Shown here: in pieces, positions 24,433 through 43,140 of the stretch | Position numbering within the stretch: the first letter of the stretch is position 1 | Layout: each line of letters begins with the position of its first letter | Origin: Pseudomonadota bacterium | GTDB lineage: Bacteria; Pseudomonadota; Gammaproteobacteria; Steroidobacterales; Steroidobacteraceae | DNA length: 64,000 bases | Direction: 5' to 3' | Assembly (NCBI GenBank): GCA_023423065.1 | Contig: JAFAGC010000130.1 | Location: forward strand, 60,118 to 124,117 | Translations under genes and position numbers: made by a program | The notes under the pieces: model-generated | The model's database searches: none | Told to the model about the DNA's origin: nothing | Seen by the model: the letters and a program-made list of their open reading frames with translations, nothing else

Positions 24433-24734
24433 TCAGGATAAGGCGATTGCGAATGCGCGCTTGCCCAGTGCTCGTTTATGCGCCGATGGATCGATTCCAT
24501 TCGCGAGCATGGAGCGCGCCGCCTGGTGACGAGCCCTCGCCTCCTCTAGCGAAACATCCGGCCTGGTGCCGAGAGCGAGGGTGTTGTACCTGCCACAAAA
24601 TCGGTAGTTATATCGCCAATACCGACCCCCATTTGGCATCACTAACAAGTACAAGCCACCGCCATGGAATACTTTTCGCGAGTAGCGCAGAGGCGCCGTG
24701 TCATCAGGCGCTTTGCTGCGTTTCTTTAAGTATG
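24433..24734 (-). pseudogene. P4-type tyrosine integrase remnant (N-terminal DUF4102/arm-binding region only)
   Basis: GGGLYLLVMPNGGRYWRYNYRFCGRYNTLALGTRPDVSLEEARARHQAARSMLANGIDPS is the hallmark N-terminus of P4-like integrases. There is no catalytic domain, the stop is at 24433-24435, and the 5' end abuts the IS. Confidence 0.75.
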
Positions 24735-25515
24735 AGATCTGGTGCATTGGCGGTCGGGCCGGAGGAAGCCGCCTTCGCGGGGAGCTCCACGACAAAGGGT
24801 TCGCCAAAGCGTGATCCCAGAGAGACTTCAGCGACAAGCGCCCATTAGACCGACCGCCAAAGGAGAACTGTCGTTTGTGTATACGGTGCGCGAGTTCGAC
24901 GCCAGCAAGTGCAGTAGCGGCCGTCTCCAATGACTTGAAGCCCAACATTGAAGCGCAGCGACGTTTAATCGCACGGTGATCTTGCTCCACAATGTTGTTG
25001 AGATAGCGGCAACTTCTTACCAGTACCGATTTCCATCTCGTGTCCTCGTCAGTTAGCAGGCGAACTGCCCGATGACTTGCGGCGTGACCGTCGAGAGTGA
25101 TTTTCCGCGGCCACACTGATTGCTGGGTTGCGACCGCCTTGCGGAAAAATGCCTGCGCGGCTTCGATTCCTCGATCCTCTCGCAACAGTGAATCGACGGA
25201 CTTGCCGTGTTTATCGACAGCACGATAGAGATATGCCGATTTGCCGCAAACGCGGATGGCAGTCTCATCCATGCGCCAAGAGGAATTCACCCGAGTCGCG
25301 TACCTGGCCCACCTTCTTTCGTATTCCGGTACGTAGCGCAACACCCAGCGCATGATCGTCGTATGCGTCACGACGATGCCGCGCTCGGCCATCATGGCAG
25401 CCAAGTCTCGGTAGCTCAGTCGGTAGGTTATGTACCAGCGGACGCAGAGCTCAATGGTTTCGGTCTGGAACCTGCGACCTCGATAGATCGGGTCGCGCTC
25501 GATTGGCTGAGTCAT
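24433..25515 (-). CDS. IS6-family DDE transposase; the ORF lacks its own stop and reads through the IS end into the integrase remnant
   Basis: WRMDETAIRV (D), ITLDGHAAS (D) and YLNNIVEQDHRAIKRR (E) match IS6/IS26-type motifs. The transposase-like sequence ends near ...SLWDHALA, and the remaining ~100 aa are the integrase fragment. Confidence 0.8.
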   Translation of the reverse strand: MTQPIERDPIYRGRRFQTETIELCVRWYITYRLSYRDLAAMMAERGIVVTHTTIMRWVLRYVPEYERRWARYATRVNSSWRMDETAIRVCGKSAYLYRAVDKHGKSVDSLLREDRGIEAAQAFFRKAVATQQSVWPRKITLDGHAASHRAVRLLTDEDTRWKSVLVRSCRYLNNIVEQDHRAIKRRCASMLGFKSLETAATALAGVELAHRIHKRQFSFGGRSNGRLSLKSLWDHALANPLSWSSPRRRLPPARPPMHQISYLKKRSKAPDDTAPLRYSRKVFHGGGLYLLVMPNGGRYWRYNYRFCGRYNTLALGTRPDVSLEEARARHQAARSMLANGIDPSAHKRALGKRAFAIALS

Positions 25516-25863: not shown

Positions 25864-27171
25864 CTAGCGCTGGCCATGCCGTGCCTTCTCTTCCGGTGAT
25901 TGCCACTGGTCGAATTGCTCGAGTACATCCGCAGTGCTCATGAGCATTCGTCCGTGTTTTAACTGGTCAAGGATCCGTTCCCGGCGCAAGCCCGACAATT
26001 CTGCAGCCCGCAATTCCACATCTTTGAAGAATGCCTCTCTGTCGCGAGCTTCCACCCAAGCAGACATGATGCGGCGCAACTCGGCGTGACTTTGCTTCTG
26101 CGCTTCGGCGATTCGGCGTTGCTCCTCTTCATGCCGCCACTTTTCGCGTTGCTCTTCCCAGTCTTGCCGCTGCAGTTCGAGCTTTCGAAGCGTCTCGTTT
26201 ATTTGCCTTGTCACTTCCCCAACGGACCTCTCGAGTGTCGTCACGATCGACTCGGCACTTGCATCCAGCGGCTGATCCTTCTCATCCCAAAGTCGCTTCC
26301 ATTGCGTACCTCTGAATGCGGAATAGATCTGCAGCCGGAGGCGCCCAGTCGGAAACTGCCGTTTGGTTGTCCAGGTCGTGTCAAGTCCGTACCGTCGCTT
26401 AGAAGGTTTGTATTCCGAGTCCCGGATGTACTTGCCATCGACATATCTCGCGATGACTTCTTCAGCCATCTCGATTGTTGTGAGGCCGAACTCGACTTCA
26501 CCGACATAGACCACCGTTGGGCACGACGGCGACCAAAGATTGGTGTAGCTATCTAGCGGTCCCGGCGGTTTCTCAAGCATGTCGGGCGCGCGCCGCTGAT
26601 TTTCTTCGTAATCTCGCTCAAACAAGACTCGATGCCCGCGGGCCTCGAAAGCTTGAAACAACGTATTGGCGAATGTCAGCGCGCGATCCAGCATCGGCCG
26701 AGTCACGATGACGTCAACAAGAGCCTTCTTGTCTGGCTTTAAGTATCCCAGCTCGTGGGAGAAGCGCCCTTTCTCGAAGTGCGCCTTTGCACCCGAGATC
26801 ATGTGATGCAGGCTCGCTTTTTCAGGCTGCGCCGATCGAAGTTGCGAGCTGAGTTTCGCTCCTGTTGATGACGGCGTGCCTGGCGCTGGAAGGCTGACTG
26901 ATATCCCCTTCATCCAGCTCAGCTGGTCACCGGGCTTAGCCGGCGGCAGTGCCGGTGCTGCTGGAGCGCGACCAACCGCTGCTTTCCCCCAATAGCCCGC
27001 CGCTGGCCGAGGAACATTCAGCGCCGTACAGACACGTGCCATGTAGCTCGATGACACGCCGAAAGCCGAAGCAACTCTAAGCATCGGCTTAGACCAGACG
27101 AGTTCGTAGAGCGCTTCGCGGCTGATGGGCTGATGGGTACTAAGCGGTTGTTTCTTGTCGTCCGGCTTCAC
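25864..27171 (-). CDS. hypothetical protein with an HTH-like N-terminus and a charged coiled-coil C-terminus
   Basis: Start assigned to GTG 27171 (VKPDDKK...). The conserved-looking ISREALYELVWSKPMLRVASAFGVSSSYMARVCTALNVPRPAAGYWGK module recurs in uncharacterised proteins. The C-terminus reads QRQDWEEQREKWRHEEEQRRIAEAQKQ. Confidence 0.55.
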   Translation of the reverse strand: MKPDDKKQPLSTHQPISREALYELVWSKPMLRVASAFGVSSSYMARVCTALNVPRPAAGYWGKAAVGRAPAAPALPPAKPGDQLSWMKGISVSLPAPGTPSSTGAKLSSQLRSAQPEKASLHHMISGAKAHFEKGRFSHELGYLKPDKKALVDVIVTRPMLDRALTFANTLFQAFEARGHRVLFERDYEENQRRAPDMLEKPPGPLDSYTNLWSPSCPTVVYVGEVEFGLTTIEMAEEVIARYVDGKYIRDSEYKPSKRRYGLDTTWTTKRQFPTGRLRLQIYSAFRGTQWKRLWDEKDQPLDASAESIVTTLERSVGEVTRQINETLRKLELQRQDWEEQREKWRHEEEQRRIAEAQKQSHAELRRIMSAWVEARDREAFFKDVELRAAELSGLRRERILDQLKHGRMLMSTADVLEQFDQWQSPEEKARHGQR

Positions 27172-27260
27172 GAGATGTTCCAGATAGGTGCAATGGATGG
27201 GATGGGTAACTAGGCTCGAGTGCGTTGTTCCACGTTGTTCTTGACTCCCGCTACGAGCGG

Positions 27261-27280
27261 CGGTACAACGCGGTACAACG
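27261..27280. promoter_or_regulatory. tandem direct repeat CGGTACAACG x2 in a divergent intergenic region
   Basis: Two exact adjacent 10-mers lie 15 nt upstream of the ATG at 27295, between the divergent genes. Confidence 0.35.
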
Positions 27281-27294
27281 CATTCGAGGCCCCT

Positions 27295-29559
27295 ATGGAC
27301 GATACATACACCGCAACGAAGACACGCTCTAACAGACCCGGCTGGAGCGTAATTTTCCGGCACCCCCTTCGGCGAGATACGCGCGGCAAGGCTGGACTTA
27401 AGGTCCGACGCGGGCTCGATACCACTGACGACGCCCGCGCAGATGAGCTCGTCGGACAGCTCAATGCGCTACTTGGCGACCGACGCTGGTGGAGTGCCGA
27501 TCGCCGGGCCGATGCCGAACGTGAATTCGCCGCACTAGTCGTCTCGGCCTTCTATGACGGAATTGAAGTGGGCCGCGTCGATACTGCGGCTCTTCGAGAA
27601 TCGAAGATCCCACTCCCCAGCCGCGACCAGGGGTATTCGCGCATCCTCCTGGTCGGCACGACAGGCGCCGGCAAGACCACGCTATCTCGTCATCTCATCG
27701 GCTCGAATCACAGTTCAGATCGCTTTCCGTCCACGTCAACCGCGCGAACCACAATTGCAGATACCGAAATAGTGACGTCCGAAGGTTCGTTTGAGGGTGT
27801 CGTCACCTTCATGTCGGAATTCGAAGTGCGCGCACACATCGACGAGTGCATCGAAGCAGCGTGCCTCGCGACCATTGAAGGGCAACCAGCGGAAAAGATC
27901 GCGAGTGCATTGATGACACACCGCGAGCAACGCTTTCGACTCACTTACATCCTCGGCGAGTTATCGCTCGCAGAGCCTTCAGCCGAGGAGGAAAGCGAGT
28001 TTGAATTTGATGACACGCCGGCAGACGCCGGCGATGAGAATGCTGTTTCAACTGAGGATCGCGCTACGAATGCGTCGCGGCTGCGCACCTACTTAGAGCG
28101 CATAGAGGCCCTCGCGGCGACAACCGCTGAAGAAATGGCCGCGGATTTCGGGACGTTGTCTGCGCAAGGAACGCCCGATGACGCGGCTGCCTGGCTCGAG
28201 CTGTACAGCGACAAGCTGTTTGAGAGCGAAGAGTTTGCAAAACTTTCGCTAGATATCAAGGACGACATCGAGAGTCGCTTCGACCGCCTAGACGCGAATA
28301 TTCTGGACCGATCCGCCACGGGATGGCCGCAGTTCGCCACCTTCCAAAGTGAAGATCGCGAGACGTTTCTTGATCAGGTGCGCTGGTTCAGCAGCAATCA
28401 GTCGACGCAGTTCGGGCGGCTGTTGACGCCACTCGTCGATGGCATTCGCGTGAGAGGTCCATTCAAACCATTGAATCCGGATCTGCACATTGCAGATCGC
28501 ATCGTGCTAATCGATGGCGAAGGTCTCGGCCACACGGCCGAGTCAGCATCGAGCGTGTCAACGAAAATAACGCGGCGTTTTGCAGACGTTGATCTAATCC
28601 TGGTAGTCGACAGCGCTCAGCAGCCGATGCAGGCTGCGCCAATCGCGCTGCTGCAAGCTGCAGGAAGCGCGGGATACGGCGACAAGATCGCGGTCGCCTT
28701 CTCTCATTTCGATCAAGTCAGGGGGGACAATCTGAAAACGGTCGCACAAAAGCGCAGCCACGTACTCGCGAGCGTCGGCAATGCCATGACAAGCCTCCGG
28801 CAGCGACTCGGCGCGCCCGTCGCGACAGCACTCGAGCGTCGACTTAATGAAAGAGCGTTTCTATTCGGTGCGCTTGATCGCGAACTAGATTCCATTCCCA
28901 GCGGTGTGATTAGTGAGATGGGTCGCTTGATGAACCTGTTTCGCGAGGCGTCACTGCCCGAGAAGCGTGCCGAAGCGACGCCGATCTATGCCACTGGTGG
29001 CCTCGAGCTCGCGCTGCGGGATGCAGTGGAAAGCTTCTTGCGTCCGTGGGAAGCGCGCCTTGGACTCGCTTCGCGCGATGGAATCCGCACGGAACATTGG
29101 ACACGAGTCAAAGCTCTGACGCGTCGATTCGCGAACAGCTGGGGTGATGAGTACGACACGCTACGGCCCGCGAGTGACTTGATCGGCCGTATTCAAGAAG
29201 AAATCTCACGCTGGCTCGACAGCCCTTCTGGCTGGACCCGAGATCCGGGCGACGAAGATGAAAGAGTCTCCGCGCTGAATGCCGTCCGCAACGGCGTGTT
29301 CAACGCCCTGCACACTCTGGTAACAGATCGTTTGGGCGAACAGCACCGTGCGGAATGGATGTTAGCCTACACTTTTTCTGGGCGAGGCTCAGGGTCGCGC
29401 CGCGCCAGCGAGATCAGGCGAATCTACGAAGCAAGCGCACCACCGATCAGCGCTTCAATGCAACCCACCGCGCGCGCGTTCATGTCAGATGTAGTCAGCA
29501 TTGTACGAGACGCTGTTGAGAAATCTGGTGGACGCTTTGAGGTAGCGCAGGCGGCGTAA
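27295..29559 (+). CDS. large P-loop NTPase (GTPase-like) with an integrase-arm-like N-terminal domain
   Basis: GAGG lies 5 nt before ATG 27295. The N-terminus RPGWSVIFRHPLRRDTRGKAGLKVRRGLDTTDDARADELVGQLNALL resembles the N-terminal arm domains of tyrosine recombinases. Walker A is LLVGTTGAGKTT. A DxxG/Walker-B-like IVLIDGEGLGH lies about 290 aa later, followed by an NKxD-like FSHFDQV. Confidence 0.65.
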   Translation: MDDTYTATKTRSNRPGWSVIFRHPLRRDTRGKAGLKVRRGLDTTDDARADELVGQLNALLGDRRWWSADRRADAEREFAALVVSAFYDGIEVGRVDTAALRESKIPLPSRDQGYSRILLVGTTGAGKTTLSRHLIGSNHSSDRFPSTSTARTTIADTEIVTSEGSFEGVVTFMSEFEVRAHIDECIEAACLATIEGQPAEKIASALMTHREQRFRLTYILGELSLAEPSAEEESEFEFDDTPADAGDENAVSTEDRATNASRLRTYLERIEALAATTAEEMAADFGTLSAQGTPDDAAAWLELYSDKLFESEEFAKLSLDIKDDIESRFDRLDANILDRSATGWPQFATFQSEDRETFLDQVRWFSSNQSTQFGRLLTPLVDGIRVRGPFKPLNPDLHIADRIVLIDGEGLGHTAESASSVSTKITRRFADVDLILVVDSAQQPMQAAPIALLQAAGSAGYGDKIAVAFSHFDQVRGDNLKTVAQKRSHVLASVGNAMTSLRQRLGAPVATALERRLNERAFLFGALDRELDSIPSGVISEMGRLMNLFREASLPEKRAEATPIYATGGLELALRDAVESFLRPWEARLGLASRDGIRTEHWTRVKALTRRFANSWGDEYDTLRPASDLIGRIQEEISRWLDSPSGWTRDPGDEDERVSALNAVRNGVFNALHTLVTDRLGEQHRAEWMLAYTFSGRGSGSRRASEIRRIYEASAPPISASMQPTARAFMSDVVSIVRDAVEKSGGRFEVAQAA

Positions 29560-30217: not shown

Positions 30218-31468
30218 TCAAATCAGCTTGTCAGGAAGCTTCACCTTTTCCGCTGAACTCGCACCTAGCGCGAGTTTGTACTTATCAAGCAGGCCGTCAT
30301 CGGCGGGAAGCCCAGCCATATGACGCAGCAGCTCACGCGCCAAACTTTTGCCTCTGCCAATAACCGTCTGACGTACCGGGTCCCAAACAACTGATCTGTA
30401 TGGGGGCTTCGCAATATCCATTGGAAGCACTTTCAGCTGGTGAACTGCCTCGACCAAATTGATTTCGTGCGTATTTGCGAACGCGATCGCGGTTCGTGTG
30501 AAGGTATCCAGTCCAATTGGTCTGAAAAGAAAGTGACCTCCATGAGGGCCGCGCTGCTTCGCGGCAATCCCGTCAGGGTTGGCACTGGTGAGCACCTCTC
30601 CCACTGGCTTGAAGGCTTTACCCATTGACTCGAAGTATGAGACCGCCAAGTCGTAGAACTGACCTAAGCGGGCATCAGCTGGTCTGTTGAACCGAAGACT
30701 GCGATCACTGCGCTGTTTGACATCGTTAAGAAAAAGCAGTTTTAGCGTATCGTAGAGACTGGTAATTGTCGTCAAGCAAGTTCGGTTCGTTGCCGGAATG
30801 TTTTGACTCGAGATCACAGCGATCTTCGGATCTCGAAAATGTGGATTTGTCTCGACGAGACGTCGCGCGATGATCGCCATGACATCGTCTTCGTCCAAGG
30901 CAATGATGTCGCGTTTTCTGACGGGCACGGCAGTCTTGTTTAGAGTCGTAAAAAGTCTGCGCGTGCGCTGCATGCCAGCAGCATCTCGTTTATGTCCTAC
31001 TAGTAGTACGGCTACCTGCTCCTTTTCTAGATTGACTCCCTCCGCGATCGCTCGTTTGATTCCCGCCACCCGATGCTGGCCGTCCACCGCAAATATTTTT
31101 TCCGAGCCAGACAAGCTTAAGAAACCCAGGCTATCCATCGCTGCTGCCGGAATCAGCTTCACAATTTCAGGCCGACTAGTTGACTGAAAGCCACCGACCT
31201 CAAGCCATTCGGGGCTACCTTTATAGGTAGCGAGGACCAACGCATTGAAGAAGCGCTCTTTAGTGTTCGCGAGGTATTCCGCGATGTGCTTGGAACGCGG
31301 CCCTTCCAGGCTTCGCTGAATTAGCTGGGACAACGCCTTGTCAGGATGGATTTCTTCCGCGAACTGAACGCGAGTCCCCACCTCCTTGATCGGCATCAGA
31401 CAGGCGTAATAGATCCAGTCTCCGATCGAGCCGCGAATCGCCGGGAGTACAAGAGGATTTTGGTTCAT
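30218..31468 (-). CDS. DGQHR-domain protein (DndB-like paralogue)
   Basis: LPAIRGSIGDWIYYACLMPIKEV opening (compare DndB FPAIKGVQACREYYVSMCPL), FAVDGQHRVAGIKRAI and FTTLNKTAVPV motifs. Its ATG overlaps the stop of the upstream gene by 1 nt (TAATG). Confidence 0.8.
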   Translation of the reverse strand: MNQNPLVLPAIRGSIGDWIYYACLMPIKEVGTRVQFAEEIHPDKALSQLIQRSLEGPRSKHIAEYLANTKERFFNALVLATYKGSPEWLEVGGFQSTSRPEIVKLIPAAAMDSLGFLSLSGSEKIFAVDGQHRVAGIKRAIAEGVNLEKEQVAVLLVGHKRDAAGMQRTRRLFTTLNKTAVPVRKRDIIALDEDDVMAIIARRLVETNPHFRDPKIAVISSQNIPATNRTCLTTITSLYDTLKLLFLNDVKQRSDRSLRFNRPADARLGQFYDLAVSYFESMGKAFKPVGEVLTSANPDGIAAKQRGPHGGHFLFRPIGLDTFTRTAIAFANTHEINLVEAVHQLKVLPMDIAKPPYRSVVWDPVRQTVIGRGKSLARELLRHMAGLPADDGLLDKYKLALGASSAEKVKLPDKLI

Positions 31469-31974
31469 TAGAACGCCGCCGCCTTAGGCGCACGAATTCT
31501 AGCTTCAAGGTCCCGTTTGTTGACGGGAGGCATCACGGAGTTGATGAATGCCTTCTCGATGCGCGCCAGATCCACATTCTTCTTGGGCAAGGGCACAAAA
31601 TTGAAGAAGAGGTCGCCCCACCAATTCTTGAGCATGTAGTGGACCGCCGGGCGGCCGTCCTCGTTCTTGTAGTCAAGTAGATATTGAGCGTATCGCTTGT
31701 GTAGATCTTGCGCGGACGTATCCCCTGTAATGCCGACGTACATGATGTATCCATGCACAGGCAACTTGGCCGGCGAGACTTCGATGGTGAAGACATATAT
31801 CCCTCTCTCCTTGGGAACCAAACCGTGCGTATCTTCGCCGAAGCGAATCTTTTGCCATTCCAGTTTGTACTTGCTCTTGAACTTCTTCCAGGTACGCAAG
31901 TTCAAAAAGAATGCGTGTAGGTCTCCTTTGTACTTCTTCGTGAGATCGACCAGATCGTGATGCTTCCCCGCCAA
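31468..31974 (-). CDS. GIY-YIG-superfamily nuclease-like protein
   Basis: ERGIYVF...GYIMYVGIT, a conserved Arg (LHKRYAQYL), and a C-terminal EKAFINSVMPPVNKR (E...P.N). The TTG start is preceded by AAGGTGGGAG. Confidence 0.6.
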   Translation of the reverse strand: MAGKHHDLVDLTKKYKGDLHAFFLNLRTWKKFKSKYKLEWQKIRFGEDTHGLVPKERGIYVFTIEVSPAKLPVHGYIMYVGITGDTSAQDLHKRYAQYLLDYKNEDGRPAVHYMLKNWWGDLFFNFVPLPKKNVDLARIEKAFINSVMPPVNKRDLEARIRAPKAAAF

Positions 31975-32136
31975 ACGTCACTCCCACCTTCTTTGAGCCA
32001 CTCGAGATGTATCAGCTGCTGAACCTTCGACTATAGTGCCCAGGCTAGCAACGTATCGCTACGTTGTGAGCGTTAGCGCCCTTTGGACATTTTGAAGCAT
32101 AATCTGACGGACTATCGAGATATTAGGCCATTCTCC

Positions 32137-32310
32137 ATGATCCCGAAGCTCGTACAAACAGACCCGACGGAAAGGACATGCACTGCCTGTCGAACCCGCA
32201 AGCCACTCACGGAGTTTCATCACTTCGGCAGGCGGCGTGAGCGTATCGGGAAGTGGTGTGAGCCCTGCTTTCAACACATAAATGGCAGACGAAAGCGGTG
32301 CGCCCACTGA
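32137..32310 (+). CDS. possible small zinc-ribbon protein
   Basis: CTAC...(17 aa)...CEPC two-CxxC arrangement (TCTACRTRKPLTEFHHF...GKWCEPC). It lies in the 361-nt gap between minus-strand genes. It may be spurious. Confidence 0.25.
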   Translation: MIPKLVQTDPTERTCTACRTRKPLTEFHHFGRRRERIGKWCEPCFQHINGRRKRCAH

Positions 32311-32335
32311 TACTCCAAGATCGCAGCCGACCGCT

Positions 32336-32890
32336 CTAGGTCAGCTTCGCAGAGGGAGCGCCCACGACGATCTTGCGCTGCAGTATTTGCGCGAACTCAT
32401 CGACATGTGTGTCGTTGATATCCAGAGAACGAAGTTCCTCTTGCACCTTGAGCACATAGTCCGCGCATGAGCCGCTAGCACCACTCGCCGCCAACGCCAT
32501 TTGCACTCGCTGATCAATAGCCAGGTTGCCAATATATGTGCGGGACTGACGATCGTTCACGGGAACAATCCCTTGCACAGCCCTGCCATCTGGCAGCAAT
32601 ATTTCGTGAGTTTCGAGTGTAAACGAACGCCCTTCGCGGCGAGCGAGGGTAGCTAGTATGGCCTGACGCCTATCTTTACCGAACTCAAACGCGATACCCA
32701 CCACCTCGGCGTCTTGATCTGGTTCCAAGCCCAAAGTTGGTCCGCGTTTCTCACTTGTGCCCCAGTTCTTGCTTGAGGCTTTGTTGAAAGCGCGACGAAA
32801 TCCACGAAGCAGTGCGCCAGGCAACCTGTCGCCACTGAACGGCTTCTCCCAACCGTCCCACATCAATGACCCGTACCCGAAGACCCACAT
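32336..32890 (-). CDS. ChaC/gamma-glutamylcyclotransferase-like protein
   Basis: MWVFGYGSLMWDGW opening, typical of ChaC/GGCT (YGSL motif), and GLEPD...GIAFEF. GAGGAG lies about 10 nt before the ATG. The gene starts 30 nt after the dndE stop on the same strand. Confidence 0.75.
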   Translation of the reverse strand: MWVFGYGSLMWDGWEKPFSGDRLPGALLRGFRRAFNKASSKNWGTSEKRGPTLGLEPDQDAEVVGIAFEFGKDRRQAILATLARREGRSFTLETHEILLPDGRAVQGIVPVNDRQSRTYIGNLAIDQRVQMALAASGASGSCADYVLKVQEELRSLDINDTHVDEFAQILQRKIVVGAPSAKLT

Positions 32891-32920: not shown

Positions 32921-33298
32921 TCAATCCACAAGTCCAATTAGGTCATCAATTTTTCGCAATTTCTTATTAGCGGCCAGGTAGGAAATTCCCCTGTGCAAAT
33001 GAAGACGGAACTGCTGGCTTAAGGACTCGGCATCACTCTCAAGCTTGTCGCGCACACAACGCTCTTTGAGTAAGGCCAAATAAATCTCGGAATACCTTCC
33101 AGCAAAGACCTTCCAGCTCATCTCGACATTGCTGTCGGCAGGCACCTTTGCCCGGGGCGGCACGCTCTTCTCTGCGAGAGAGACACAGAACGCCCACCGG
33201 CAGAGCGTGTTCCAGTGCTCAATGCCAGTGACTCGCTTGAGCTTGATCAGTTGATCCTTCGCCTGTTGCGAAAGCCGGATGTGGTCAATGGCGCTCAT
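32921..33298 (-). CDS. dndE: DNA sulfur modification protein DndE
   Basis: IRLSQQAKDQLIKLKRVTGIEHWNTLCRWAFCVSLAE is DndE-like. ATG 33298 overlaps the dndD stop (ATGA). Confidence 0.85.
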   Translation of the reverse strand: MSAIDHIRLSQQAKDQLIKLKRVTGIEHWNTLCRWAFCVSLAEKSVPPRAKVPADSNVEMSWKVFAGRYSEIYLALLKERCVRDKLESDAESLSQQFRLHLHRGISYLAANKKLRKIDDLIGLVD

Positions 33299-35286
33299 GC
33301 GGCTGCTCGCGTCTCGAAGTAGCCAGGTACAACTCGTGTGCAACCCTGCTTGTCGTCATACTCAAGCCGATATGTGCGGCCAATCCATGGATCAAGGCGG
33401 CGCAAGTATTCGCCCGAGATCTCTTCGTCTGTTGAGAGGAGGATCACTTGATGGCTCGCAAACGGAAAGTAGCGTTCGACTAGGTGGATGCGGTGATCCG
33501 TGTCGAGACGACCGAGCGGAGTATCTATTGCAGTTGGCAAGGGACGTCCGGATGCCTTAGCCAAGCCCCAAAGCAATGCAATCGCCAATAGCTGCCGCTC
33601 ACCAGCAGAGAGGCGCTCTGCAGTGAGGACCTTGTCGTCGCGACCAAACAGGGTGAGCGAGTACGTTTCTGCATCAATCGTAAGTCGGGTGACAAGAGAA
33701 GACTTCCTCAACAGCTGGCGATAGCTCTCAAGGACCAGCTGCTCAATTCGGCGTACATGCCGTGCCGTCACGGCACGACGAAAGGCACCCAAGGTTTCGC
33801 GGATCTTGCTCGAATGATGCAGGATGCGCGAGCGATCCTGTCGGTCGCCTTCCGCGCGAGCACCTTCTTCTAATAGCCGTGTGAGTGCCTGCCCTTTCCG
33901 TTCGATCTCGCGGAACACCCGTTCGATCTCGCTGCCAATAATGGCGTACTGCGACTCAAGCGCCGCGATCTCCAAGCGCAGCGCATCGCACTTCGAAGCT
34001 ATTTCTGCAACAGTGTCTGCACCTGGAATGCTGTCGAACTTGAGACGTAAACGTTCCGCGCGCACCGTCGCATCGCGCTGCTGCTTCACTTTGACAGCCG
34101 CCTCTTTTGATGTAGAGGCAAGTTCCTCGCGCAGCAAGGCATGCAGATCGGTTCGAGTTTCAGGCAGCAGATCCAGCACCGGCTGGTCTCCGCTCAAGGC
34201 TTCGCGCTTCTGCCTATCCTTCTCGAGAAACTTCTTCACGTCCTCGAGGGCGCCTTTGGTCAAACCTTGTTTGCGCAAGTGCTTGATCATCCCCTCGTCT
34301 CGCTCACGCAGCGTCTGAGCTACCTCACGCGCTTGACGAGCCTCTTCTTCAGACCGATCTCGAGCCGCGACGGCCTTCAATAGATCGCGAACGAGCAGCA
34401 ACGGAGCGGCACCAGCGGCTAGCTCACGAAGGGCCTCGGCACGCTGGGAAACTTCGTCGTCCGCTGCTTTGCGGTCGCGCTCAATCTCGGCTCGTTGCTC
34501 GTAAAGCTCACCGCCGAGCTTTCGGAATTGCTCTTCAAGCTTTGACAGCGTTTTCCGCTTCTGATCTATCTGATGTGTTCGCAACGAGGCGCGTTCCTCA
34601 GCGAGTTTTTCGGAACGGGTTCGCAGGTCCGTCAGTTCGTTCTCGGCGGCAGCGATTTCCGTCCGGGCGACATCATCGCGTTCTTGCGTGCGTTTGCGTC
34701 TCTCATAGACCTGCAGGTCTTTGTCGAGCTGATCAACAATGTCGAGCCCCAGTAGATTCTGGATCGCTGCGCCGATGAGAGAGGAAGAATTGGCGAAAGA
34801 GGCGTAGCTTTCGATCTGTTCACCGTCGAACAAGAACAGGTGTGCAATATTTGGCGGCATCAGGTCTTCGACCTGTGTGATCCAATTGTCCGCCAGTGCA
34901 GGTTCAAGTTGCCCATTGCGCCAAACTTCAAACTGCTCCTTGCAGCCGCTCTCGGTCACGCGCCAAGCGCGCCTCAACCGATAGTGATCCTCGTGCCCTT
35001 CCACGGTGTGCCTGAACGCAAGCTCGATCGAAGCGGCGCGATCTGTAGCGCTGCGATGAATACTTCTGCTCAGATACTCCGGATATCCGATCGATCCGCG
35101 GTTGGAGATCCGAGCGTGCGGACCATACAAGCAAAGCTGGAGCGCATCGAGAAGCGTTGTCTTACCACCGCCGTTCAGTCCACCGATCAGCACAACCGGC
35201 TTCGACGCCGACGGCGGGGTGAAGCAAAGCGTTTGTCGATCGGCATAGAGGCCAAAATTCTGTAACGTGATCTCGTCAAGAATCAT
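33295..35286 (-). CDS. dndD: DNA sulfur modification protein DndD (SMC-like ATPase)
   Basis: MILDEITLQNFGLY...GGLNGGGKTT Walker A, a long coiled-coil middle, LSAGERQLLAIALLW signature, and AIDTPLGRLD. Confidence 0.9.
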   Translation of the reverse strand: MILDEITLQNFGLYADRQTLCFTPPSASKPVVLIGGLNGGGKTTLLDALQLCLYGPHARISNRGSIGYPEYLSRSIHRSATDRAASIELAFRHTVEGHEDHYRLRRAWRVTESGCKEQFEVWRNGQLEPALADNWITQVEDLMPPNIAHLFLFDGEQIESYASFANSSSLIGAAIQNLLGLDIVDQLDKDLQVYERRKRTQERDDVARTEIAAAENELTDLRTRSEKLAEERASLRTHQIDQKRKTLSKLEEQFRKLGGELYEQRAEIERDRKAADDEVSQRAEALRELAAGAAPLLLVRDLLKAVAARDRSEEEARQAREVAQTLRERDEGMIKHLRKQGLTKGALEDVKKFLEKDRQKREALSGDQPVLDLLPETRTDLHALLREELASTSKEAAVKVKQQRDATVRAERLRLKFDSIPGADTVAEIASKCDALRLEIAALESQYAIIGSEIERVFREIERKGQALTRLLEEGARAEGDRQDRSRILHHSSKIRETLGAFRRAVTARHVRRIEQLVLESYRQLLRKSSLVTRLTIDAETYSLTLFGRDDKVLTAERLSAGERQLLAIALLWGLAKASGRPLPTAIDTPLGRLDTDHRIHLVERYFPFASHQVILLSTDEEISGEYLRRLDPWIGRTYRLEYDDKQGCTRVVPGYFETRAAA

Positions 35287-36833
35287 GCGGGTACTTCCAC
35301 TCTTCCTGGCAATTCATGGCTCTCCTGGGCGTTGGGGGGCGTCGGATCGAGAGCGCGCACGCGAGCATCACCTAACGCATCACGTCGCTCACGAGCACGT
35401 TCGACGGCATCATCCTCACTCGAATAGAAGCCTCGATGGAACGCTTGCTCCATCGCATCGAAGAGGCCTGCCCGGCGCAACATCGATTTGTACTGCTTTT
35501 CGATTGAAAGGAGCTCACGGGCGAGCTGAAAGTGAATCTCGTCAGTCCCGCAGATTTCACGTAACAGAGCTACCTCTGCTGCGCCCATGACGAGATTGTC
35601 GTCGATGCGACCGCCCGGATACTTTTCGCCGACCGCATCTTCGTAGATGCCTGGCAGCGTGTCCTCGATTTCATGTTTGTCGACGACCCAGATGCGGCGA
35701 ATCTCTTCGAGCTCAGCGATGGTGATGAGTTGCAGATCGCGAACCTCCGGCGGACCGTTCTCGCGAATATGCCGCTGCGCGCGCAGCACCTTCCGCAGCC
35801 AGGTGGCGCGTACCTCCTGCTTGTAGGGGCCGGGGATCGGCCGATCATTGAAGAGCTGTACGGCGCCGTTCATTCGCCTGAAATCGCGCAGCGGGCGATC
35901 GGCGTCCGGAGTCTTCGGCGGATCTAACTCATTACGGAGTTCTAGGAGCGGCAGCATCCACTCCTTCTCCTCGTCGTTCTGAATCATGGCTTGCATCGAC
36001 TTGTCCTTCTCGACAAGTGTGCACACCCAGCAGCCAAAGCGACTATCACCGCAACTCGGCGTACTAGTGTCGACGACCAGGGGACACTCGCCATCAGCGG
36101 AAGCCCCTTGATACATAGTCAACAAATCCTTGTTGTTAAAACCCCAGGGATTACGTACTTGCATCAAGAAGAGCCAAACATCATCGTTGCTCCAGTCCTC
36201 AAGCGGCGAATACACGAATGAGTTCGGGAGGCTGCCGTTGGGGCTCAACCGATCCCTGACTCGCTTGCGCTCAAACTGCTCCATTACCCGTGCGCGCGCC
36301 GCACTTTCGGCCTTGCGTGTCCCGAGTACGAGAATGGCCTCACCGTGCTTCTGCACGACCGAACTAATGAACTGAGTGGACGGCATGATCTTTAGGCGCT
36401 CAGTGCACCAGCGGAATTTGGGCCGCGGCGCGGGATATCCGCGTCCGATCAAGTTAACCCAGAACGTGTTTGTTGCTTCGGGTGTCAGCCGATGCGGGGT
36501 GATCGGCATATTCTGTTTGGCCGCCTCTGTACCGATTTTCTCCAGCGACTTTGATACCCAAAGCGCGACGATTGGGTTCTCGACCAAGGTGTCGGTACTA
36601 ATGACATAGACCGGCTTACGACGTTGCTCTGCAGGCACCTGCGAGAGGGCAAGCCAAATCAGTTGAAGCGCTGCTGTCGAGTCCTTACCTCCGCTGTATC
36701 CCACAACCCACGGGATATCATCGCTGGTGTAGAGCGCCGTCACCTCATTCATCAGGTGCGCGAGCGTCGACTTCATTCCATGCTCGGTGAATGCCGAGCC
36801 AGCGTTACCGTTCTTTTGATTCTTCTGAGCCAT
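35283..36833 (-). CDS. dndC: DNA phosphorothioation sulfurtransferase DndC (PP-loop ATPase)
   Basis: VVGYSGGKDS PP-loop and a Cys cluster (CGDSRFGCWVC). ATG 36833 is preceded by GAGGGGAAA. The maximal TTG ORF extends to 36893. Confidence 0.9.
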   Translation of the reverse strand: MAQKNQKNGNAGSAFTEHGMKSTLAHLMNEVTALYTSDDIPWVVGYSGGKDSTAALQLIWLALSQVPAEQRRKPVYVISTDTLVENPIVALWVSKSLEKIGTEAAKQNMPITPHRLTPEATNTFWVNLIGRGYPAPRPKFRWCTERLKIMPSTQFISSVVQKHGEAILVLGTRKAESAARARVMEQFERKRVRDRLSPNGSLPNSFVYSPLEDWSNDDVWLFLMQVRNPWGFNNKDLLTMYQGASADGECPLVVDTSTPSCGDSRFGCWVCTLVEKDKSMQAMIQNDEEKEWMLPLLELRNELDPPKTPDADRPLRDFRRMNGAVQLFNDRPIPGPYKQEVRATWLRKVLRAQRHIRENGPPEVRDLQLITIAELEEIRRIWVVDKHEIEDTLPGIYEDAVGEKYPGGRIDDNLVMGAAEVALLREICGTDEIHFQLARELLSIEKQYKSMLRRAGLFDAMEQAFHRGFYSSEDDAVERARERRDALGDARVRALDPTPPNAQESHELPGRVEVPA

Positions 36834-37917
36834 TTTCCCCTCGTCGGAATGCATCCTCGGTCCGCTGCTCCTCTGCCGAGAGCGCGAGCCCAAGATGATT
36901 CTTGATTGCGTTCGTTGTCAGGACCACATTCTGTTGCGACTTTGAAACGCGACCGCCCAGCAAGGCTCGGCCTTCCCACAAGCTGCTATTGCTTCGGCTC
37001 CAGTCCATTGACTGCAGGGCAGTAAGCTTCTTCGACCACTGCTTCGGATATTTTTGGATGAGAGCATTGCCCGCGCGCGCGAGAGCCTGAAGCACCACGC
37101 CATGCGTGTGAATGAAGTCCGTTCGAACCTCACCCGCCGTCATCTCGCCACGCCGAACGCGATCCCATTCGTTCATGTATTTCGCAACGGCTTCCCAAAA
37201 ATTCAAGGCAAGCTCGGCGCTCTCCTGCGGGTCCTCGAGCCCGAGTCCATCGAGCAGATCGCTGGTCGCATGATAGATGGCACTCAGTGTGAAAAGCCGG
37301 CGCGAGCGTGGCGAGAGCGCAGTCTTTTCCATTTCCACGACGTCGCGAAATACGGGCGATTTTGCGATCAATGACTTCGCCATTTCGGCGACGGTGTCGC
37401 GGTGGTCATAGAGGATGCCGAGGGAGGGCGAGGGCCGGATGGCATACCGATTGAGGTCGGCAAACATCTGCTGGCAGCGCTTGAGGCCGACGTCGAGGAA
37501 GAAGACTACTGCGATGCTTTCGTCGCCGAGTTCGGGCCGCTCGCGCAACGCCATCTCGATGGCTGCGCGGCGATGTTGACCATCATTGATGATAAATCGG
37601 GCCTGCATCGGAATACGAAGGAGCCCAATGCGACTCGCCTCACCTTCTTGGGCAAGCTGCTCAAACTGCACCGCGGCGTCGATCGAGGCAGTGATCGCGG
37701 AAAAGACATAGTTCTCGTTGTTGTCGATTACGTAACGTGACATCTCCGGGAGCCGCGCCCGATTGAGGTGGCGCTGCGCCCGCAACTCAGGCACCAGTTC
37801 CTCTTCGTTAAACAGGAACAGTTTCGGAAGCAGCCGCAACGGGCACATCGAGACGTAATATTCGCGACACGCCTGGACGCCCTTGATGGCTGGGAATACG
37901 TACTCGAAGCCGCTCAT
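36805..37917 (-). CDS. dndB: DNA sulfur modification protein DndB
   Basis: MSGFEYVFPAIKGVQACREYYVSMCPL opening, INDGQHRRAAIEMAL, and QQMFADLNRYAIRPS. Confidence 0.9.
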   Translation of the reverse strand: MSGFEYVFPAIKGVQACREYYVSMCPLRLLPKLFLFNEEELVPELRAQRHLNRARLPEMSRYVIDNNENYVFSAITASIDAAVQFEQLAQEGEASRIGLLRIPMQARFIINDGQHRRAAIEMALRERPELGDESIAVVFFLDVGLKRCQQMFADLNRYAIRPSPSLGILYDHRDTVAEMAKSLIAKSPVFRDVVEMEKTALSPRSRRLFTLSAIYHATSDLLDGLGLEDPQESAELALNFWEAVAKYMNEWDRVRRGEMTAGEVRTDFIHTHGVVLQALARAGNALIQKYPKQWSKKLTALQSMDWSRSNSSLWEGRALLGGRVSKSQQNVVLTTNAIKNHLGLALSAEEQRTEDAFRRGENGSEESKER

Positions 37918-37946
37918 GCGTCTTGAACTAAAGAGGGTTGTGCGAT

Positions 37947-37979
37947 ACAAACATAATGAGTGATGTGCGCAATGTTTGT
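37947..37979. promoter_or_regulatory. inverted repeat ACAAACAT-N17-ATGTTTGT in the dndA/dndB divergent region
   Basis: Perfect 8-bp arms at 37947-37954 and 37972-37979. The repeat lies just upstream of the preferred dndA start. Confidence 0.3.
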
Positions 37980-37985
37980 CAAACC

Positions 37986-39155
37986 ATGAACCAAACGTTT
38001 GTATCTCAACACACACAAGATGCAGCGGCTTACTTGGACTGCAACGCGACGACCCCTGTCGAGCCGGCAGTGCAGGCCCTTGTGGCACGGCACTTTGGCG
38101 AAGAGTTCGGCAACGCCGGCAGTCGAACACACGAATACGGCCTAAGGGCGAGCAAGACTGTGCAGCTGGCGCGCGAGCGCGTGGCGACAGTCGTTTCGGC
38201 GAAGGCTGAAGAGGTTATTTTCACCGCCGGCGCGACCGAAGCCAACAACCTGGCGATTCTCGGGCTCGCCGAGCATGGCGAAAAAACGGGCTGCCGGCAT
38301 ATCGTTTCTACGGCAATCGAACACAAGGCGGTCTTGGAGCCGCTTCAGGCCCTCAGCGCGCGCGGTTTCGATGTGACCTTGCTCCGGCCTAAAGAGAATG
38401 GGGCGGTAGATCCCACCGCCATAGCCGCGGCCCTAAAGCCCGAGACCCTATTGGTCTCGGTCATGCAGGCGAATAACGAAACCGGTATTCGCCAACCGAT
38501 CACGGAAATCGCCGCTGCGTTAGCTGGGCACGACGCCTACTTTCATGTCGACGCGGCGCAAGGTTTTGGCAAAGACCTTGAATCGTTGCGCTCGACGCGT
38601 ATCGATCTACTCAGCGTGAGCTCGCACAAGATTTTCGGACCCGTGGGGGTGGGGGCGCTCATTGCCCGACGACGTGGCTTTCGCAAGCCGCCGCTACAAC
38701 CGCTGATGTTTGGCGGCGGTCAGGAACGCGGTCTACGGCCAGGTACGCTTCCTGTGCCACTAATCGCAGGTTTTGGATTGGCTGCCGAGATGGCTGTTAC
38801 TCAAAACGCCCAACGGCGGTCGCGATGCGAGGCCATGCGTTTCGACGCGCTGGCCGCGCTACGCCCGCTCAACCTTTTCATGCATGGCAATCCCGACAAC
38901 GCCCTGCCGCACGTCCTCAACTTCTCCATCGATGGCCTCGACTCCGAGGCAATCATGGTCGCCCTGAAGGGCATCGCTGCCATCTCTAACGGCTCGGCCT
39001 GCACCTCGCAGAGCTACAAACCTAGCCATGTCCTGCAGGCGATGGGGCTGACTGACGCGCAAATCGCGGGCGCGGTACGGATCTCCTGGTGTCATCTAAC
39101 ACCTGACCCTGACTGGCATACCATCGCGGCGAGGCTCGCGCAGATTCAGCGTTGA
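37986..39155 (+). CDS. dndA: cysteine desulfurase DndA (IscS/NifS-like)
   Basis: YLDCNATTPVEP, SSHKIFGPVG (PLP lysine) and SNGSACTS (active-site Cys). Divergent from dndB, as in classical dnd loci. The start is uncertain, with alternatives at 37938 and 37956. Confidence 0.85.
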   Translation: MNQTFVSQHTQDAAAYLDCNATTPVEPAVQALVARHFGEEFGNAGSRTHEYGLRASKTVQLARERVATVVSAKAEEVIFTAGATEANNLAILGLAEHGEKTGCRHIVSTAIEHKAVLEPLQALSARGFDVTLLRPKENGAVDPTAIAAALKPETLLVSVMQANNETGIRQPITEIAAALAGHDAYFHVDAAQGFGKDLESLRSTRIDLLSVSSHKIFGPVGVGALIARRRGFRKPPLQPLMFGGGQERGLRPGTLPVPLIAGFGLAAEMAVTQNAQRRSRCEAMRFDALAALRPLNLFMHGNPDNALPHVLNFSIDGLDSEAIMVALKGIAAISNGSACTSQSYKPSHVLQAMGLTDAQIAGAVRISWCHLTPDPDWHTIAARLAQIQR

Positions 39156-39163
39156 GGGCAGCC

Positions 39164-40429
39164 TTAGGCTGCCGCATCCGCCTCCATCATCCGCAGGTAA
39201 TGCTCCGTCAGAGAGCCAATCTCCACGAGCGTTGGCTTCAGGAAGTTGGACTGGGTGATCATCGTCTCACCCTTGAGTTCCTTTAGCGCCTCAAGCAATG
39301 ACTGCAGCGTATTGAGTGGTGTCTGTCGAGCCTTCTGATGCAGATACTCCGCCTCGACGAGGCGCATCGGCTTCGTGGCCTTCTCAGGGTTGGATACGTC
39401 GAATTGCGAGGCGAACCCGGTACCGTTCTCCGAGTCGTACTTTGACATGTCATTCCACAAACGGATGTTCTCGGCCTTGTAAAAGACGTTTGGATTCTTG
39501 TCCTCATCTTTGCGAGGTTGCGAAAAGGCCCACTGAAAAAGCGCCTTCTCGGCCTCATCCGAGAGGTAGAGCCGGTCTTTAGTGAACGCGAACTGTTCCT
39601 GTGCGTACTTGTGCTGGAGGATGTTCTCGAAGAAGTACTGATCGCTATCTGAGAACTCCTCTCCCTCAGGCAATTGATCGTCGTAGTGTCGCTTGAAGTG
39701 GCTGAAGGCAGAGGCTGCCTGGATGTTGCGACGAGTCTTGGTCTCGCCGAGCGACACCATTGATGCCACGCGTGCGATCAAGTGTTGCTCGAGCCGAAGC
39801 GGCTCTTCATCGCCGTACTGGTCGCGAAACAGTCGCTCGTAGAGCGAGGTAATGTAGAGATTCGTCGCGTAGGGACCCCACTGACGCGCATGCGTGATGT
39901 GCCGAACACCCAGCAGCCGCGGCAGCTTCTCTTCCAATTCCGCAGCCGTGGCCGCGTTCACCGGATAAACCTGAAGCCTGTCGGTGTCATTGAAGATCGC
40001 TTCCAGGCGTTCGACATGAAGCTGTTGCTGCTTGATTTCCTCGGCGGGCATCTTGCTGCCCTTCGTGAACTTCGAGAGCTTCGCTTTCTCTCGCTCAAGA
40101 CGTGGTCCGCGAATGCTGCGCAGAACCGATACGCGCGTATTGCCCTCGACCACAATGTAGTGGCCTTTGCGATCGGGATGCTCCCACACAATGATCGGAT
40201 CGATCGGCACCCAGCCCTGGGCGATGATCGCATCTTCAAGATCGCCGGCCTGGTAGACCGTATAGACCTTCGTGGTCAGGTCTTTTTGCAGGTTCTCCTC
40301 GAAGATTTCTTCGGGATCTTCGTAACGCGTCGCGCGATCCGGCGCAATGCGTGGATTGTTAGGGTCGAGAAAGATCTTCGAAAAGGGGACGGTGATGGCC
40401 TTTCCCAGATCGCCAAATGATTTAATCAT
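39164..40429 (-). CDS. ParB/Srx-fold (ParB N-terminal-like) domain protein
   Basis: KIFLDPNNPRI ... IVWEHPDRKGHYIVVEGNTRVSVLR resembles the ParB-like nuclease/NTPase domain. Its ATG overlaps the helicase stop (GATGATTAA), which suggests translational coupling. Confidence 0.6.
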   Translation of the reverse strand: MIKSFGDLGKAITVPFSKIFLDPNNPRIAPDRATRYEDPEEIFEENLQKDLTTKVYTVYQAGDLEDAIIAQGWVPIDPIIVWEHPDRKGHYIVVEGNTRVSVLRSIRGPRLEREKAKLSKFTKGSKMPAEEIKQQQLHVERLEAIFNDTDRLQVYPVNAATAAELEEKLPRLLGVRHITHARQWGPYATNLYITSLYERLFRDQYGDEEPLRLEQHLIARVASMVSLGETKTRRNIQAASAFSHFKRHYDDQLPEGEEFSDSDQYFFENILQHKYAQEQFAFTKDRLYLSDEAEKALFQWAFSQPRKDEDKNPNVFYKAENIRLWNDMSKYDSENGTGFASQFDVSNPEKATKPMRLVEAEYLHQKARQTPLNTLQSLLEALKELKGETMITQSNFLKPTLVEIGSLTEHYLRMMEADAAA

Positions 40430-42967: not shown

Positions 42968-43140
42968 TTGGAATACATAGGAAAAACAGAGCGATAGAAG
43001 CGTGCAGGCCGTTTACCTGCAGGGCTAAACCTCTTTCGCACGTGCTTGGATGGCTCATCCGTCTTGTGCCCAAAAGGTGCTTGGTGCATAGGTCGGCGTT
43101 CAAATGCCGGACGGAAAGGGACCGTGAAGGAAGCAGTGCC

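Follow-up and report, generated by a model that had tools for sequence, protein, structure and literature searches.

Phosphorothioation (PT) is, to our knowledge, the only modification that nature makes to the DNA backbone. It has long been puzzling that many of the dnd and ssp modification modules come without a recognised restriction partner, and equally that modification of PT sites is only partial. A locus in a member of the Steroidobacteraceae (Pseudomonadota; assembly GCA_023423065.1) raises the question of whether an unnamed pair of genes could be such a partner. In a stretch of 64,000 nucleotides (contig JAFAGC010000130.1, positions 60,118 to 124,117; hereafter the window), a dndBCDE operon is followed on the same strand by a gene for a small GIY-YIG nuclease (open reading frame A, ORF-A), the end of which overlaps the start of a gene for a DGQHR-domain protein of the DndB family (ORF-B). 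Comparison with related loci and with known PT-dependent effectors suggests that the pair is a conserved two-subunit accessory module of PT systems that would act as a split PT-sensing nuclease effector, a proposal to which we give about an even chance of being right; the formation of a complex, NTPase activity, sensing of PT, nuclease activity and a defence phenotype are all predicted on the strength of that comparison. The elements of the pair are the following:

31468-31974, minus strand: ORF-A, a standalone GIY-YIG-superfamily nuclease of 168 amino acids with a TTG start (open reading frame list, invariant residues, fold)
30218-31468, minus strand: ORF-B, a DGQHR-domain protein of 416 amino acids, a DndB-family paralogue of the ParB/Srx superfamily (TIGR03187, PF14072)
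31468-31472, minus strand: TAATG overlap of the ORF-A stop and the ORF-B start (sequence inspection)
31981-31990, minus strand: Shine-Dalgarno-like sequence AAGGTGGGAG, 6 nucleotides 5' of the TTG start of ORF-A (sequence inspection)

Is ORF-A indeed a nuclease of the GIY-YIG type? Its sequence holds the motifs R57-G58-I-Y60 (GIY) and Y79-V-G81 (YVG), and the residues Y60, Y79, G81, R94, Y98, R108 and E140 are invariant across 62 diverse relatives at 25-50% identity; N152 is invariant in 29 closer homologues, in two of which E140 is replaced by Q. Apart from R108, these residues make up exactly the GIY-YIG catalytic set, and the R-x3-(H/Y) and E-x11-N spacing of R.Eco29kI matches R94-x3-Y98 and E140-x11-N152 of ORF-A. 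Direct scans of Pfam, NCBIfam and PADLOC gave no significant match for ORF-A itself (12.7 bits on PF20815, for which the cut-off is 22.4); among the 62 relatives, 13 match PF01541 (best E 9.8e-7) and 12 match PF20815. When the profile of these 62 sequences was searched against the PDB, the sole matches were GIY-YIG domains of UvrC (E 0.09-0.39), aligned through GvY...YiGk...R..Y; a match to RGS16 returned by the profile of the 29 closer homologues was discarded as spurious, the 62-sequence profile being needed to reach UvrC. The AlphaFold2 (AF2) model of ORF-A (predicted local distance difference test score, pLDDT, of 73) has a β-β-α-α-β-α core in which most of residues 31-150 are at pLDDT 73-95 and the GIY and YVG motifs lie on adjacent strands (58-66 and 74-83). 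A Foldseek search of BFVD with this model has as its best match a phage GIY-YIG protein (E 1.8e-4, probability 1.0, template modelling scores 0.49/0.61), with many intron-associated GIY-YIG endonucleases ranking lower in the list, and the best match in the PDB is R.Eco29kI (E 0.24, probability 0.77). Given the invariant catalytic residues, the family matches of the relatives and the predicted fold, the assignment stands, and we accept ORF-A as a member of the GIY-YIG nuclease family, though it falls below every curated hidden Markov model (HMM) threshold.

By an exhaustive profile search, the family of ORF-A comprises about 650 clusters at 50% identity, and of the 150 members listed nearly all are standalone, with lengths of about 100-190 amino acids. 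The fold and the catalytic residues are common to ORF-A, R.Eco29kI, the N-terminal domain of UvrC and the phage GIY-YIG endonucleases. Unlike these enzymes, ORF-A has a conserved N-terminal extension of about 55 amino acids and a longer GIY-YIG hairpin, lacks a DNA-binding module of its own (Pfam and profile scans found no NUMOD/IENR-type C-terminal module) and is always paired with a DGQHR protein.

The second member of the pair, ORF-B, passes the cut-offs of the domain models TIGR03187 DGQHR (108.9 bits; cut-off 58.85) and Pfam DndB PF14072 (95.8 bits; cut-off 29.1; about the first 230 of 338 positions covered) and fails that of the DndB equivalog TIGR03233 (64.3 bits against 328, over profile positions 6-222 of 355 only); it is therefore a diverged paralogue and not DndB proper. 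Compared with the DndB of the window, it shows 25% identity over 260 amino acids (E 1e-15), and the V-PAI-G, QR, DGQHR and F..LN motifs are common to the two proteins; within these, Q51-R52, D129-G-Q-H-R133 and F173..L176-N177 of ORF-B are invariant in 34 homologues. The domain and its motifs are thus shared with DndB, whereas the C-terminal half is different: in the AF2 model of ORF-B (pLDDT 83) this half is helical, confidently predicted (pLDDT >90) and divergent from DndB. No recognisable relative of the C-terminal half was found, a Foldseek search of the PDB with the full-length model yielded nothing meaningful, and PDB profile searches with ORF-B gave only chance matches to RhoA. ORF-B is further unlike DndB in that it is always coupled to a GIY-YIG gene, co-occurs with true DndB in the same locus and is present also in ssp operons devoid of DndB. 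A second DGQHR-type protein has been tied to PT by phylogenetic profiling, namely the 'DNA phosphorothioation-associated DGQHR protein 1' of TIGR04172 (PMC3226654); ORF-B does not belong to that family (18 bits against a 450-bit cut-off), for which a GIY-YIG partner is not described.

An earlier note on this DNA, made from the letters alone, had called the two products a GIY-YIG nuclease and a second, diverged DndB-like protein with motifs in common with DndB. Both calls hold, the catalytic residues of the former being present on alignment. Of the HMM searches that the note proposed, those with ORF-B came out as befits a paralogue, while ORF-A stayed below the Pfam GIY-YIG thresholds. PADLOC matches ORF-B with its DndB model only, and annotation pipelines can therefore be expected to mislabel this gene, just as current defence-finder libraries miss the pair as such; under their NCBI names, some members of the two families are no more than a 'GIY-YIG nuclease family protein' or a 'DGQHR domain-containing protein', and others are wrongly called 'DndB'.

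Do the two genes form a unit? The stop of ORF-A and the start of ORF-B share gcggcgttcTAATGaacc at 31472-31468, and ORF-A starts at TTG 31974, 6 nucleotides past the Shine-Dalgarno-like site AGGTGGGAG. This start is supported by the conservation of the N-terminus (MAGKHHDLV..TKKYKG) in homologues, which align from residue 2 and most of which are also 168 amino acids long. A survey in which one genome per species was scanned returned 43 loci (denoted below, together with other related loci, by L numbers), from Bordetella, Neorhizobium, Variovorax, Pseudomonas, Sphingomonas, Erwinia and Lysobacter as well as from Dehalococcoidia and other Chloroflexota, Acidobacteriota, Latescibacterota, Nitrospinales, Thermodesulfobacteriota, Rhodothermales and others. 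A DGQHR homologue lies directly 3' of the GIY gene in 40 of the 43; of the remaining three, one is truncated where its contig ends and the others have only a more distant GIY-like gene. Of 39 loci measured, about 34 have a stop and start that overlap by 1 or 4 nucleotides, and the best-120 homologue lists of ORF-A and ORF-B have in common dozens of entries with an equal longest contig. The recurrence of the gene order in 40 species and of the overlap in most loci shows that the adjacency is not due to chance, and translational coupling of the two genes is supported. The pair rides on integrative and conjugative elements (ICEs) and plasmids. Among 50,697 records of a phage collection, the sole match to the pair was a mis-filed bacterial contig of Salmonella (L045), and no true phage was found to carry it; complete E. 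coli genomes, queried with the pair as present in Salmonella, gave no match.

Is the pair tied to PT? In the window, it closes a minus-strand series in the order dndB, dndC, dndD, dndE, ChaC-like gene, spacer, ORF-A and ORF-B:

32921-37917, minus strand: dndB-dndC-dndD-dndE phosphorothioate modification operon
36805-37917, minus strand: dndB (TIGR03233, 527.7 bits; cut-off 328)
35283-36893, minus strand: dndC (homology to the DndC genes of related loci, themselves PADLOC DndC matches)
33295-35286, minus strand: dndD (PADLOC DndD, E 2.9e-215)
32921-33343, minus strand: dndE (TIGR03184)
37938-39155, plus strand: dndA-type cysteine desulfurase gene, divergent from dndB (homologues are SspA/DndA in PADLOC)
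32336-32890, minus strand: gene for a ChaC-like gamma-glutamylcyclotransferase (Pfam PF04752, E 8e-26)
31975-32335, minus strand: spacer of 361 base pairs between chaC and ORF-A

The layout given in the earlier note, with the pair downstream of dndBCDE and on the strand of dndBCDE-chaC, a bona fide dndB and the TAATG overlap of the nuclease stop and the paralogue start, is confirmed in all these respects, including the coordinates. The note had also presented the pair as PT-linked, and the survey bears this out. With neighbouring genes annotated by means of the window's own Dnd proteins and PADLOC-identified Ssp proteins, PT-type modification genes are found within 10 kb of the pair in about 33-36 of the 40 species loci. 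The outcome that the note had named as refuting, a pair located mostly away from dnd and ssp genes, is clearly not what is seen. The contexts of the pair are the following:

21 loci: sspB-sspC-sspD-GIY-DGQHR on one strand, the pair 18-110 nucleotides past sspD and sspA usually divergent upstream
8 loci: dndBCD(E) within 10 kb of the pair
3 loci: cluster of DndA, short DndC, DUF262/DUF1524 protein and SNF2 helicase
1 locus: PDC-M33 cluster with an SspD-like fusion
1 locus (L002): sspA plus sspG/H beside the pair
2 loci: only an SspA-like gene beside the pair
1 locus (L008): conjugative element with PbeA/PbeC-like genes and GmrSD beside the pair
L006 and L027: no PT gene seen in the flanks; L014: flanks too short to judge

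This linkage bears on whether the pair might be a selfish or unrelated passenger, either a homing-type GIY-YIG cassette or an independent defence pair lodged in the same islands and ICEs, which we regard as very unlikely. The G+C content of the pair (52.4%, against a window mean of 58.5% with a standard deviation of 1.95) falls in the lowest 0.5% of sliding windows of the same size, so that the AT-richness remarked on in the earlier note is real and, on the passenger reading, would reflect separate acquisition. The location in an island of ICE-like character, which has an IS6 transposase, a MobP1 relaxase and VirD4, and the two loci L006 and L027 devoid of a PT gene within 10 kb, point the same way. 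However, the association with PT-type genes in most of the species loci extends over many phyla and often takes the form of a common operon; moreover, no intron or intein context surrounds ORF-A, which has no homing-type DNA-binding module, and the only match in the phage collection is a bacterial contig.

What, then, would the pair do in a PT system? The five-gene ssp-type operon is present in L015, L018-L024, L026, L028, L030, L031 and L033-L041, that is, in 21 species of very different phyla, and the SspD identity of 62-86% among these loci implies recent horizontal spread of the whole five-gene cassette. The module 3' of the operon varies, consisting of SspFGH, PbeA/C-like proteins, a ResIII helicase, an unassigned protein of about 810-820 amino acids or HATPase_c_3 plus PLD; in related loci, PADLOC models pick out SspH, PbeA and PbeC among the neighbouring genes.

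Such an arrangement could mean that the pair belongs to the modification side and not to restriction. On this main alternative, which we consider somewhat unlikely, it would be part of the regulation or of the modification core of a separate Ssp/Dnd subtype. The DGQHR paralogue would then act in the manner of DndB, binding DNA and limiting or positioning PT, or repressing the operon, and the GIY-YIG subunit would supply or resolve nicks in sulfur insertion, or edit or turn over PT sites. The position of the pair, fixed right after sspD in 21 species next to restriction-like modules that differ, agrees with such a role, as does the fact that the UvrC-type GIY-YIG domains, the sole PDB profile matches of ORF-A, are repair nickases. 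Furthermore, Ssp systems otherwise have no DndB equivalent (PMC8092258, PMC10853773), and the role demonstrated for DndB is that of an ATP-modulated negative regulator of dndBCDE and PT (PMC4507180). Nevertheless, beside the pair there is already a bona fide DndB in the window and in the loci L005, L007, L009, L010, L011 and L045. The Ssp nickase is SspB, which likewise counts against a modification role of the pair, and in a repressor a nuclease active site would not have to be fully conserved. Finally, sspBCD and dndBCDE operons of the canonical kind function without the pair (PMC8092258, PMC11662687).

The same loci would also accommodate a reading in which the pair forms the invariable core, reader plus nickase, of a separate PT subtype that has been transferred widely and comprises the five-gene ssp-type operon and its Dnd-linked sister clade; in this role, the pair would set, edit or turn over PT marks. 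A DndB-like reader would guide a nick by the UvrC-like GIY-YIG subunit, and the SspFGH, Pbe-like and helicase modules may carry out the restriction. We consider this quite unlikely; if true, a DNA backbone modification would for the first time have an activity dedicated to its 'editing or erasing'.

The effector proposal that we prefer draws on the precedent of SspE and DndI, in which a ParB-superfamily DUF262 NTPase with a DGQQR motif and a DUF1524 HNH nickase are combined in a single chain, and which show PT-stimulated NTPase activity and coexist with SspFGH or DndFGH (PMC11662687, PMC8092258). Similarly, the pair combines a ParB/Srx-superfamily module bearing DGQ(Q/H)R with a DNA nuclease, is encoded beside PT genes and coexists with SspFGH, Pbe-like or helicase modules. 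In contrast to SspE and DndI, it consists of two polypeptides, its nuclease is of the GIY-YIG rather than the DUF1524/HNH type, and the DndB/PF14072 family (DGQHR), not DUF262/GmrSD_N (DGQQR), provides its ParB-like module. The logic of the pair is most like that of SspE and DndI, built from different parts. Neither ORF-A nor ORF-B is matched by Pfam GmrSD_N or GmrSD_C or by the PADLOC models for SspE/Orf5, DndF/G/H, SspF/G/H and Pbe, and an hhalign comparison of ORF-B with a DndI-like protein aligned 13 columns, all around DGQ(H/Q)R; the link of ORF-B to SspE and DndI rests on published superfamily assignments and not on a comparison made here. None of the 21 ssp-type loci has an ORF of the DGQQR (SspE/DndI) type within 10 kb, which fits the pair filling the niche of these proteins.

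The earlier note knew of no characterised system of this composition. The pair is indeed undescribed in the searchable literature, the curated NCBIfam models and the PADLOC models, but systems analogous to it, SspE and DndI, are known (PMC11662687).

Individual loci illustrate the relationship with known restriction modules. On pTiK1_93 of Rhizobium sp. K1/93 (L046, 168719-193969), the pair immediately precedes sspFGH-like genes and is read in their direction, an arrangement like that of dndI and dndFGH; the counterparts of sspF, sspG and sspH are annotated there as 'hypothetical', 'hypothetical' and 'DNA translocase FtsK', and sspDC, in which SspD is the PAPS-reductase gene, is convergent to the pair. 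RefSeq mislabels the DGQHR protein of pTiK1_93 as DndB. An ICE of Salmonella Infantis SARB27 (L045, AFYI01000007.1, 348353-372724) carries GIY-like, DGQHR and GmrSD/DndI-like genes together with dndBCDE and could serve as a tractable model; its DGQHR ORF looks N-terminally shortened and has no overlap with the GIY gene. In L032 (11753-20085), and also in L025 and L029, a different PT-like cluster is found on the strand opposite the pair, comprising DndA/SspA, a short DndC, a DUF262/DUF1524 protein (Orf5/HEC-06/SspE-like in PADLOC), an SNF2 helicase (DpdE/ZorD-like) and a small ParB-like protein; no match of this arrangement to a named system was found. The DGQHR proteins fall, in a neighbour-joining tree, into an Ssp-linked clade and one that is mainly Dnd-linked, the window being part of the latter. 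A rule equating the clade of the pair with the type of PT system was rejected: L002 and pTiK1_93 are in the window's clade, yet lie beside sspFGH or sspDC.

URI/GIY-YIG nucleases at the boundaries of Dnd systems have been noted by Aravind and colleagues (Nucleic Acids Research 2024; PMC10853773), who, in the main text and one supplement of their study, propose a role as backup suicide effectors. As a standalone GIY-YIG/URI nuclease beside Dnd modification genes, ORF-A resembles the nucleases described in those parts of the study and is probably one of those counted there; term searches of these parts found no mention of an obligatory DGQHR partner, of translational coupling or of an sspBCD-GIY-DGQHR operon. 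By extension, the pair might be a backup suicide or abortive-infection nuclease, an indiscriminate GIY-YIG DNase that the DGQHR protein would restrain until the primary PT restriction fails or is inhibited. Its location at the edge of the cluster in Dnd-type loci, including the window, where it coexists with other restriction modules, is in line with such a role, which we nonetheless hold to be improbable. The sspBCD operon itself encloses the pair in 21 species, where the pair is neither at a boundary nor on the other strand, and the obligatory DGQHR partner, together with the split of lineages by PT type, argues for a specific interaction with PT DNA or the PT machinery and not for a generic toxin.

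Strict pairing, linkage to PT, the split of the DGQHR lineages by PT type, conservation of the active site, the precedent of SspE and DndI, the lack of an SspE-type gene in ssp loci and the place of the pair next to sspFGH-like genes on pTiK1_93 lead us to favour the split-effector reading. We hypothesize that ORF-B would be a DNA-binding, probably nucleoside triphosphate-dependent, reader of PT status, on which ORF-A, made in fixed proportion through translational coupling, would dock. The resulting complex would nick or cleave DNA that lacks the host PT pattern and would be held off PT-marked self DNA, such that the pair would amount to a split, GIY-YIG-based functional analogue of the single-chain SspE and DndI. 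Its conserved occurrence beside PT genes in dozens of bacterial species makes the pair a strong candidate for a self/non-self defence module of a new kind.

Several observations weigh against this proposal. Between two and four loci have no PT gene within 10 kb (L006 and L027, with L014 being short). The pair is constant in the ssp loci while the adjoining restriction-like modules vary, and a core or regulatory role therefore fits about as well as an effector role. The Dnd-type loci L045, L008, L025, L029 and L032 carry the pair as well as a DndI/GmrSD-like protein, and the notion of the pair as a strict replacement for SspE/DndI was rejected as a general rule on account of such loci, which hold both. 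Profile-level similarity of ORF-B to SspE and DndI does not extend beyond the DGQ(H/Q)R motif, and transcriptional regulation is the sole experimentally established role in the DndB family (PMC4507180). In addition, the window itself holds other candidate restriction partners, a methyltransferase-like protein and a pair consisting of a helicase and a ParB-like protein:

40422-42872, minus strand: ResIII/DEAD helicase of 816 amino acids (weak matches to PbeA and to type IV restriction endonucleases)
39164-40498, minus strand: ParB-like protein of 444 amino acids, tightly coupled to the helicase (N-terminus resembles PD-Lambda-5_A)
43042-45804, plus strand: DNA phosphorothioation-associated putative methyltransferase of 920 amino acids (TIGR04096, 540.9 bits; cut-off 150)

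The earlier note had described the modification module as one without dndFGH. No DndFGH was found among the large ORFs of the window, but the module has these other candidate partners. The genes for the helicase and the ParB-like protein directly follow the GIY-DGQHR pair in Bordetella genomosp. 7 (L001; 51% and 57% identity) and may represent another PT-associated module. A homologue of the TIGR04096 protein (44% identity) adjoins the GIY-DGQHR pair in L012; the protein of the window has no Pfam or PADLOC match.

Other features of the window surround these genes. The ChaC-like gene is directly 3' of dndE, apparently within the dnd operon, and no homologue of it was found in related loci except L044, which is the same locus as the window; as a matter of speculation, the enzyme could supply DndA with cysteine from glutathione breakdown. 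On the minus strand of the spacer between chaC and ORF-A, no promoter-like or terminator-like sites were predicted, the counts being at the level of shuffled sequences. An ORF of 82 amino acids inside this spacer (32059-32307, minus strand), called as a gene on an identical Logan contig, matches no family and is without a homologue in the related loci. A P-loop protein of 779 amino acids (27220-29559, plus strand) has a 48%-identical homologue beside the ssp locus L020 and a weak match to mad8, which the C-terminus of SspH shows as well; a gene for a protein of 499 amino acids (25864-27363, minus strand) overlaps, in its longest ORF call, the start of the P-loop gene. No family assignment was obtained for either of these two proteins. 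On one side of the region, an IS6-family transposase is fused or adjacent to an integrase fragment, and on the other there are a MobP1 relaxase and a VirD4/TraG coupling protein (mobile-element features at 24433-25515, 45855-46868 and 55235-57250). In view of these flanks, the PT and defence region (about 25.8-45.8 kb) looks like the cargo of an ICE or a plasmid.

The present analysis thus brings to light an unnamed two-gene module that is common, spans Proteobacteria, Chloroflexota, Acidobacteriota, Latescibacterota, Nitrospinota and others, and is physically tied to both the Dnd and the Ssp machineries. If the pair is a true PT-sensing nuclease, it would constitute an extra class of effectors beside SspE/DndI, DndFGH/SspFGH and Pbe, and would account for some of the 'orphan' PT modules; moreover, the logic of coupling a ParB-like reader to a nuclease would have arisen at least twice by assembly from different components. 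Should the pair regulate or edit PT instead, it would bear on the question of why the modification is partial.

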